64,000 nucleotides of DNA from Candidatus Heimdallarchaeum endolithica. GTDB taxonomy: Archaea > Asgardarchaeota > Heimdallarchaeia > Heimdallarchaeales > Heimdallarchaeaceae. Position 1 is the stretch's first letter. Every line of letters begins with the position of its first letter. Where the stretch lies: assembly GCA_021513715.1 (NCBI GenBank), contig CP084167.1, positions 2,944,001 through 3,008,000 of the forward strand, given 5' to 3'. The position numbers and the translations under genes are program-made. Positions 38,112 to 40,248 of the stretch are shown here, in pieces. The notes beneath the pieces were generated by a model. It worked only from the letters and a program-made list of their open reading frames with translations, searched no databases and had not been told where the DNA came from.

Positions 38112-38615
38112 CCTTTTTTAAATTACTTTGTTCATTAATTTTTTTTCTGTTACCACAAGTCTTGTAATAATGGTTTACAATTATAACTGAAAAACTGAAA
38201 ATTATTTTTAAGTGCAAAAGCTGTTTAAAGCGTAGAAGAACTATTTAGTTTAAGACTTGTTGTAGTGTAGGAACTTATAATCAAATATATTCACCTTTTT
38301 GTTCTTTGGGACTAGTGAAACATCTTCTACTCCAGAAACACGTTATCTTCTCAATTTTGCATTATTTCTAGACTCCTTTTAGCTTCAATTTTTTTGATAT
38401 AATGAGAAAAAATTCCAAAGTGGAGAACTAATTATACACTTTCTTTATCTTTTTCTTTTCTTTCTTAACTTTTGTATATATTGTGTAAACATAATGGTGC
38501 TTTACTTAAGTTTTAGTTAGAAGAAATTAGTTTTTGTAACTCATGATTTACTTTTTTACGTAAAGTTTTTCGCACTCTGTCTTGCAAGAGAAAAAACAAG
38601 TAAAAGTTTAATCTT

Positions 38616-38830
38616 TTGAACTCAACCAAGCCATACAATGCTATGAAGGGGTTGAGACAGACAGCATACACGAATCGTGGGAATCATAAAGAAGAAAAGA
38701 ACTAAAAACTCTTTTCTTCACTCCACGAGAGACAAAAAAGAAAGAAAGAAAACTAACTCTAATACAAGAGGAGAGAATTAGTGCTTTCCTTTTTGTCTAC
38801 TGGGGCTACAACCAATGGCTGAGCCCTAGG
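38616..38830 (-). ncRNA. Predicted TnpB omegaRNA scaffold / IS200-605 right end
   Basis: Hairpins GACAAAAAG../..CTTTTTGTC, GAAGAAAAGA/TCTTTTCTTC, CTCAACC/GGTTGAG; ends in TTCAA at 38616 on the minus strand. Confidence 0.65.
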
Positions 38831-40248
38831 CAAACAGTGAAATGGGTAGAACTGTATCTATAACCAGTGAGGTAATTAGTGATAGTGTTTCCTCGAGGAC
38901 GGAAAAGAGCACCAAGGAACTTACGAGCGATATTCATTGCTCCTGTGAGGTCAGAGTGGAAAGTGTAATCGCAAGAGGGGCAATGGACTAAACCTCTAAC
39001 AGGACGGACAACTTTCCTTCCACAACGAGTACAGTGAGAGGATGTTCCTCTTTCCTCTACGGTTAATATTCGGTGAGGTTCAAAACCTCTTAATATCAAT
39101 GCCCGACGGAGAAGAGTAAGAACTAAAAAAAAGTTCCACTGATGAAGTTTTCTACGAAACTTACGCGCACTGTTCCCTTTTCCTTTATCTTTTCTCACAT
39201 TTTTGGGGTAACCTACGACGACGAAAAGGTTATACACTTGTGCATAGGTCTCTATCATCTGCACAACGTCGTTTATAAATTGGTGAATATAGGCTCGTTT
39301 AACGTTTTTATATCTTCTTCGGAGAAGACAGAGAAAACGGTAAATTTGGTGTTTTTTACCCGACTGGTCGTTTAAAGCTGCTTTCCTCTGAAGACGGGAA
39401 AGTTTAAGTTTGTATCTATGATTGACTCTATTCCACTGTTTGGTATACCAGAACTTTATCTCTTTGTTTGTTAATTTCTTTTTAGGGGTCAGTAACACTC
39501 CTGCAGCAGGAATGTTTATCCCTAGATCTATTCCCAGCACAGCTGGGGGAAGAGAAGAAGAACTTTTTTCTTCAGTAGGATAAAAAGAAGAAGGAAGAAC
39601 TTTTAGTTGGAAATACACCCACCACTCACGTGTAGAACGTTTATATCTTAACTCTAGACTTTTTATTCTTCCTTTCTTTAACTCCTTCTGGTGGAAAGTA
39701 CTCATCTCTAAAGGTAACCATAGTTTCTGATGATAAGGGGTGTTTCTTCTCCACGTATCTAACGAGTCTCTTATCCCCACCCACCAACGAGTGAGAGTGT
39801 TATTCTTCTCTTTTGGCAGATGAACGAGAACGAACCTCTTTGCATTAATTAGTTGTCTTCTTGCTCTCTTTATTGGAGGACGAGTATTATTAGGTCTATA
39901 CCCTTGTTCATATAATTGAACAGCTATATCTCTACACTCTTGGAATTCATTGTGAGAACAATAAGGGAACATTTTCTTCAGATCGTGAGGAACAGTTGTT
40001 CTTCTCTCTTCTTCTTTAACTTTTGAAGTAGTTAGTGTCAGTTCATCTAGTTTTCCTCTGTGCACTCTTATTTTCCCTTTTTTAGTTTTAGTACATATTT
40101 TTCTTCTGTTATGATGTATAATTCTTACATACTTCTCTATTATTCTTGTGTCTCTTCCCGTTATTCTCCTTAATCTTTCCTTCTTCCTCGTCGTCAACAC
40201 CTCCTTCTTTATTCTCACTTTCAAGGTTTTGACGACGTCCTCCACCAT
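38806..40248 (-). CDS. tnpB: RNA-guided endonuclease TnpB (IS200/IS605 OrfB), rearranged RuvC-II
   Basis: RuvC-I LGIDLG, VVVG in place of the canonical E, VEERGTS, Zn finger CTRC/CPSC, RuvC-III HSDLTGAMNI. Confidence 0.9.
   Translation of the reverse strand: MVEDVVKTLKVRIKKEVLTTRKKERLRRITGRDTRIIEKYVRIIHHNRRKICTKTKKGKIRVHRGKLDELTLTTSKVKEEERRTTVPHDLKKMFPYCSHNEFQECRDIAVQLYEQGYRPNNTRPPIKRARRQLINAKRFVLVHLPKEKNNTLTRWWVGIRDSLDTWRRNTPYHQKLWLPLEMSTFHQKELKKGRIKSLELRYKRSTREWWVYFQLKVLPSSFYPTEEKSSSSLPPAVLGIDLGINIPAAGVLLTPKKKLTNKEIKFWYTKQWNRVNHRYKLKLSRLQRKAALNDQSGKKHQIYRFLCLLRRRYKNVKRAYIHQFINDVVQMIETYAQVYNLFVVVGYPKNVRKDKGKGNSARKFRRKLHQWNFFLVLTLLRRALILRGFEPHRILTVEERGTSSHCTRCGRKVVRPVRGLVHCPSCDYTFHSDLTGAMNIARKFLGALFRPRGNTITNYLTGYRYSSTHFTVCLGLSHWL

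Follow-up and report, generated by a model that had tools for sequence, protein, structure and literature searches.

The tnpB gene at positions 38806..40248 (minus strand) of the 64,000-nt stretch of DNA analysed here (the window) probably belongs to a mobile element that encodes no transposase, and that would combine an omega-RNA whose guide comes from the flanking DNA, a VCAT TAM and a mover acting in trans. The host, Candidatus Heimdallarchaeum endolithica, is a Heimdall-group archaeon whose genome is a single contig of 3,326,783 bp (positions on it carry the prefix C1 below). Ca. Heimdallarchaeum genomes are circular, of 3.32 and 3.08 Mb (PMC8813620), and the nearest copies of the element lie in the 3.08-Mb chromosome of Ca. 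Heimdallarchaeum aukensis. The issue addressed is the spread of transposase-free TnpB elements in complete Asgard genomes; from the end of the element, as corrected here, follow a guide, two candidate movers and the prediction of a VCAT TAM, which, if confirmed, would be new among compact editors.

An intact TnpB with a rearranged RuvC active site

The tnpB ORF is intact and codes, as a preliminary description of this DNA had stated, for 480 aa; the product matches TnpB/Cas12f models and has the fold of that superfamily, WED-REC-RuvC-zinc finger, with a C4 zinc finger at residues 406/409/423/426. Its motifs are GIDLG (at residue 239), VVVGYP (343), VEERGTS (397) and HSD (431). The Asp residues of RuvC-I and RuvC-III, likewise noted before, are D241 in GIDLG (39526..39528, minus strand) and D433 in HSD (38950..38952, minus strand), both invariant in 101 homologs. 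A Gly had been reported at the canonical RuvC-II Glu position, and indeed, in an alignment with Cas12f, G346 (39211..39213, minus strand), at least 90% conserved, falls on the catalytic Glu. A relocated Glu had also been placed in VEERGTS; its position, 53 residues past G346, stands, with the refinement that E399 (39052..39054, minus strand) is invariant in the 101 homologs whereas E398 is not conserved. In a structure model (pLDDT 87), strands are predicted at residues 340-347 and 394-398, the second of which adjoins the RuvC-II strand and ends right before E399.

With G346 and the conserved alternative Glu E399, the protein is a RuvC-II-rearranged TnpB, and the rearrangement itself is already known. 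As in TnpB2 (Jiang et al., 2023; e.g. TvTnpB) and in the RIIr clades (Altae-Tran et al., 2023), a Gly occupies the canonical Glu position, an alternative Glu follows about 45-50 residues later, before the zinc finger, the Asp motifs are intact and the RNA lies at the right end; unlike those proteins, the 480-aa TnpB is longer, and its element has inverted ends with an AT core, not IS605 hairpin ends, and no TnpA. The same Gly/Glu rearrangement is active in TvTnpB and in a mimivirus Fanzor (Fanzor2) (PMC10530073), and among TnpBs it is the hallmark of two major clades and of eight large branches (PMC10691335). By comparison of its sequences, the 480-aa TnpB is under purifying selection, with dN/dS values of 0.13-0.22 among the dispersed copies of its family (family A). 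Given the invariant triad, these dN/dS values and the active precedents with the same rearrangement, the protein is therefore likely to be an active nuclease that uses D241/E399/D433.

Close homologs are found mainly in Heimdallarchaeaceae and Thorarchaeota, and the homologs are from Asgard archaea. In a quick tree, with SH-aLRT as the sole support measure and no Fanzor sequences included, the proteins of Heimdallarchaeaceae group together (99), in a clade that is sister to Thorarchaeota-type proteins (97).

Ends, copies and empty sites of the element

The host genome holds 12 two-ended family-A copies (80-97% identical), two copies of family D, which is related to it, as well as fragments. 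From alignments of the copies, the whole element spans 38542..40411 (minus strand), 1,870 bp with the CATG at both junctions included, of which only AT is shared or duplicated. Conservation on the left starts at the CATG at 40411; the left end (40390..40411, minus strand) reads CATG-N6-TTTTTTACGTAA and its flank AAAA-CAT. The right end (38542..38563, minus strand) is the inverted repeat of the left and ends in AAATCAT|G. As read from the sequence, the inverted ends are 22 bp long and identical at 18 of 22 positions; their repeats are built of tandem 10-bp subunits, and the target, CATG, is near-palindromic. The preliminary description had placed the right end, of IS200/605 type, at a TTCAA at 38616, where conservation among copies was expected to stop. 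This check was run, and it contradicts that end: in the host family-A copies and in eight copies of H. aukensis, conservation continues for 73 nt past 38616 and stops at AAATCAT at 38543. TTCAA is present in the window copy, yet internal and variable, other copies having TTCTCAAG, TTCCAG, TTCGCAAG or TTACCAAG instead, and what is found in place of the IS200/605 type is a pair of 22-bp inverted ends with one AT per junction.

Empty orthologous sites of the H. aukensis copies contain a single AT; for the copy at 38542-40411, an empty site was sought in H. aukensis, where the region is not conserved. Ends of the same kind are borne by lineage E, which has the canonical Glu and a right end GTTGAT, by lineage F, with GAT in its left flank, and by two MITE families. 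Because lineage E ends in GTTGAT and lineage F begins after GAT, AT is the sole sequence common to all junctions in all lineages. A duplication of 4 bp (CATG) or 3 bp (CAT) was considered and rejected, since beyond AT a single element often has unlike sequences at its two junctions. Depending on the lineage, the last base is either G or C, and the repeat cores vary between lineages as well. The same architecture is found in other genera of Heimdallarchaeaceae, with no adjacent transposase in the loci read. Two findings make current mobility no more than a possibility, which tells against the reading that we favour: a frameshift is present in four of the 12 family-A copies, and identity between these copies never exceeds 97%.

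A candidate archaeal TATA box (TTTTTATA; 40318..40325, minus strand) lies inward of the left end and may act as a promoter, and every TnpB lineage that has such ends has a similar motif upstream; a bacterial promoter scan is unfit for an archaeal host.

Several other insertions and copies were noted. One copy (C1:3321689-3323549) is a mosaic, the 5′ two thirds from one subfamily and the 3′ third from the other, showing, at the level of sequence, recombination between copies. A MITE of about 385 bp (M1 type; window 23465-23851) has the same CAT ends and an omega-RNA-like scaffold with the pseudoknot motif (see below), without a gene. A lineage-E element at C1:2833126 has as its insertion site the start codon of a host gene that lies on the opposite strand (CAT being the complement of ATG), and the insertion is found at the same site in H. 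aukensis. At five loci of one genus (L061, L063, L065, L070, L072), a gene for a HerA/VirB4-like ATPase of about 900 aa lies directly upstream of tnpB, which may be cargo or a favoured site. Just beyond the left end of the window copy there is a 65-bp exact tandem duplication (40644-40774).

The right-end RNA and the predicted guide

The predicted omega-RNA scaffold (38543..38805, minus strand; from folding and copy alignment) lies entirely 3′ of the stop codon. The region is structured (z = -4.85; none of 200 shuffled sequences was equally stable), and compensatory changes are found among the copies. The free-standing 3′ RNA proposed earlier thus stands as to its structure and its place downstream of the stop codon, but its length is about 260 nt, not 190. 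An internal strand, AUGAUU (38682..38687, minus strand), is complementary to the terminal AAUCAU (38548-38543), as expected for a pseudoknot. This 6-bp complement between terminus and interior is present in family A, in the M1 MITE and in 20/20 distinct loci of other genera, with a chance expectation of 3-7% per locus; relative to AUGAUU/AAUCAU, the M1 MITE and all 20 loci of other genera pair AUGAGU with ACUCAU, a U-A to G-C switch, and family D retains five of the six pairs. An Rfam search returned nothing near threshold. A pseudoknot at the 3′ end of the scaffold is general in TnpB RNAs (PMC10690162), and comparative evidence points to the features expected of a TnpB/Cas12f RNA: a structured right end, a terminal pseudoknot and a guide taken from the flank.

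Because the terminal AAUCAU closes the pseudoknot with the internal AUGAUU, the guide should start at 38542. The predicted guide, placed by the boundary of conservation, would be the first 20 nt of the flank (38523..38542, minus strand), GAGUUACAAAAACUAAUUUC. The guide proposed earlier, 38615-38596, corresponds by alignment and fold to the loop and one of the two arms of a conserved hairpin which, together with TTCAA, lies within the scaffold (38596..38620, minus strand).

Flanking bases and a predicted TAM

Among insertions of families A, D and M1, T precedes the left CAT in only 2/35, against about 36% expected; at the mirror position on the right there is no matching depletion (A in 17/37; Fisher p = 1e-4 for the comparison with 2/35). 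For lineage E and the M2 MITE, T is found before the left CAT in 9/10 insertions (p = 6e-7 against 2/35). A few pattern matches in which the remainder of the end was missing were taken out of these counts by eye, and the p-values overstate the bias, related copies and related genomes being not independent of each other. In other genomes, T was present in none of 14 further A-type flanks and in all 10 further E flanks, and TGAT in four F flanks. The tetramer of the right end differs from that of the left flank, TCAT as opposed to VCAT for A-type elements and TGAT as opposed to TCAT for lineage E, and the two differ in lineage F too; at one further locus, L346, both sides read TCAT.

From this lineage-specific bias in the base before the left CAT, we predict a VCAT TAM, with the TCAT of the element's own end being spared. 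The IS607 CboTnpB avoids self-cleavage through a comparable difference, TGGG versus TCGG (PMC10690162). We read the bias, on the flank counts and sequences analysed, as the likely outcome of TnpB-dependent retention of insertions; alternatively, it could reflect different movers with different target preferences.

Taken as a mechanism, a single transcript would start out from the left end, cross tnpB and the right end and extend into the flank, and its last ~260 nt would fold into the omega-RNA, in which the terminal AAUCAU closes the pseudoknot and the next bases of the flank serve as guide. TnpB, by way of D241/E399/D433, would cut the empty site left after excision, recognised as VCAT followed by the guide match, and repair from a filled copy of the chromosome would restore the element, following the IS605/IS607 precedent. 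The filled site would be spared since the element's own end is TCAT. The mover, encoded elsewhere, would exchange strands at, or duplicate, the AT of CATG-like targets.

Candidate movers: serine recombinases and DDE transposases

As to the mover, our best guess, at about an even chance, is a serine recombinase acting in trans, in the style of IS607, on the AT core. Members of the clade of the 480-aa TnpB are found inside IS607 elements, and one of them directly follows an IS607 TnpA. Like the TnpB elements of the IS607 group (CboIStron, IS1535, ISC1926), the element has one dinucleotide at both junctions and a precise empty site (with AT as the dinucleotide, a pattern to which a 2-bp duplication would look identical), short repeated motifs in its ends, a scaffold that ends in the core, and tetramers of the left flank and right end that differ by one base. 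However, in the IS607 elements described the core is GG and terminal inverted repeats are lacking (PMC6188088), whereas here the core is AT and the repeats reach the termini as 22-bp inverted ends with 18/22 identity. Moreover, an IS607-type TnpA (MerR-HTH serine) was found neither on the element nor in the complete host genome, and none of the IS607 elements read in Heimdallarchaeaceae genomes has CAT ends.

The serine recombinases of the host genome are two resolvase-plus-recombinase proteins of about 245 aa, both encoded by single-copy genes (C1:316728-317450 and C1:405348-406097); if a serine recombinase moves the element, these host genes are the only candidates in the genome. They are present in 20/21 Heimdallarchaeaceae genomes and were not found, at the same threshold, in the other genomes searched. 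The gene at C1:316728-317450 lies in a conserved operon with genes for proteins of 121 and 149 aa of unknown function. Should host recombinases indeed be the movers, RNA-guided transposon maintenance would be arranged here in a new way, and in a lineage that is close to the eukaryotes. In its widest form the proposal appears unlikely: the TnpB lineages of Heimdallarchaeaceae would make up a family-wide transposase-free class, in which unrelated lineages with AT-core inverted ends and TAMs of their own (VCAT, TCAT, TGAT) owe their movement to serine recombinases of the host that are domesticated and inherited vertically.

A DDE transposase (ISL2/IS630-like) could also bind the inverted repeats and duplicate AT, its autonomous partner being rare, lost or unrecognised; this is possible, if rather doubtful. 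The true inverted ends, their tandem 10-bp subunits and the near-palindrome of the CATG target are in keeping with it, terminal inverted repeats being the mark of DDE-associated elements, and TnpBs within DDE elements with inverted ends, including solo copies moved in trans, have been described (PMC10691335). The elements DDE-1 to DDE-6 of that study share with ours the inverted terminal repeats around tnpB and the solo copies; they differ in that here no DDE gene with matching ends was found through PF13359, PF13358, PF13613 or PF01609, and in that the terminal base (G/C) and repeat core vary by lineage, which also speaks against a DDE enzyme. PF13359 was detected in 0/30 Heimdallarchaeaceae genomes searched, PF13358 and PF13613 gave nothing above cut-off in the host genome, where IS630 and ISL2 elements were not found either, and the multi-copy DDE elements of the host genome have unrelated ends. 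The DDE_Tnp_1, IS481 and IS6 families were each considered as mover in the host genome and set aside, their ends being different.

Asgard Cas1 and the Thorarchaeota sister clade

For the element studied here, it is very unlikely that an Asgard Cas1 (aCas1) is the mover, a role suggested for it in the Cas1H-Asgard branches of TnpB (PMC10691335), which by our tree (support 97) are the sister clade. In the Thorarchaeota sister clade, tnpB stands head-to-head with the gene of a 1,600-1,880-aa protein whose N-terminus has a Cas1 fold, and the GTTCACTCA motif of PMC10691335 is present; the RE motif ACTCAT resembles it. Unlike those branches, the Heimdallarchaeaceae element is a solo gene between inverted ends with no adjacent aCas1 gene, and a homolog is missing from the host genome and from all 28 Heimdallarchaeaceae genomes searched. 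In several Thorarchaeota modules, moreover, an IS607 TnpA lies at the far end of the giant gene, so that even in that clade the mover may be an enzyme other than aCas1.

Eleven loci of the Thorarchaeota group (L377-L387; e.g. G176:C21, G182:C18, G093:C123 and G075:C7) have an IS607 serine TnpA 3′ of the aCas1-like gene, and in four of the eleven an intact TnpB of about 730 aa follows beyond it, with ends that are apparently GG-cored. Judging from their gene order and ends, these loci look like IS607 elements of about 8 kb with aCas1 as a passenger, a reading that questions the proposal of aCas1 as a transposase. In a second set (L041-L060), the giant protein encoded head-to-head with TnpB has the N-terminal Cas1 fold (Z 12.8) and a PD-(D/E)xK-like motif near residues 390-430, the remainder being without Pfam match. 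At these loci, GAGTGAACTC, about 50 nt upstream of tnpB, is complementary to a downstream GTTCACTC, which suggests a split, tracr-like RNA.

Relation to Fanzors

That the protein comes from a lineage ancestral to the eukaryotic Fanzors, inherited through an Asgard ancestor, is highly improbable. The Gly/relocated-Glu site is identical, the host is a Heimdall-group archaeon, and the inverted ends and the RNA 3′ of the ORF, overlapping the inverted end, recall the elements of Fanzor1 and Fanzor2 (PMC10530073). However, with a profile of the TnpB family, structures of Cas12f were matched at 1e-19 and Fanzors not at all, at E values up to 10, although Fanzor2 is present in the same library and was matched there, at 1.5e-9, by the IS605 TnpB of the host genome. 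By structure search, Cas12f (Z 19.1) and ISDra2 TnpB (16.9) rank ahead of Fanzor2 (15.6). Unlike Fanzor1 and Fanzor2, which have eukaryotic or giant-virus hosts, the TnpB family here resides in archaeal genomes, is nearer in sequence and fold to Cas12f/TnpB, and has a RuvC-III consensus of NADxN type.

Among prokaryotes, most of the nearest relatives also have the rearranged site, as do two unrelated TnpBs of the host genome; within TnpB it is spread over two major clades and eight large branches, and the Fanzor families are intermixed with many TnpBs. The kinship with Fanzors implied by the preliminary description is thus unsupported. Rather, the sequence evidence suggests that the Gly/Glu rearrangement came by inheritance from a large clade of prokaryotes, and that the likeness to Fanzors is that of a common site; on present evidence, the element has no bearing on Fanzor origins.

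Y1 transposases and neighbouring elements

An IS200/605 element with its end at the TTCAA at 38616, a guide at 38615-38596 and a Y1 TnpA in trans is so improbable that it can be set aside: TTCAA is there, some distant relatives adjoin Y1 genes, and junctions that both read SAT|G on one strand would be possible for a single-strand enzyme too, but conservation extends beyond 38616, TTCAA is variable, the element has inverted repeats and lacks the subterminal GC hairpins, the TCAA/TTCAA end and the intact Y1 gene of IS200/IS605 elements, the only Y1 gene of the host genome is split by one of these MITEs, and searches of the complete H. aukensis genome and of 25 genomes from another genus turned up no Y1 gene. 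That Y1 gene belongs to a classical IS605 element (C1:923912-925900), in which an M1 MITE splits tnpA at a CAT, in the second codon; the TnpB of this element is also RuvC-II-rearranged.

The preliminary description rightly saw no tnpA adjacent to tnpB. The neighbour, at 40833-41626, is a remnant of the IS6 family and was rejected as a partner, being a separate element with ends of its own. This IS6-family element, of about 790 bp and with GGTAGTGTCTAGTTT ends, is found twice in the window (35582-36363 and 40833-41626), with both transposase frames disrupted, and in about a dozen copies in the host genome. Elsewhere in the window, two near-identical coding segments of about 320 bp (29720-30037 and about 47834-48157) lie in two related genes for membrane-anchored proteins.
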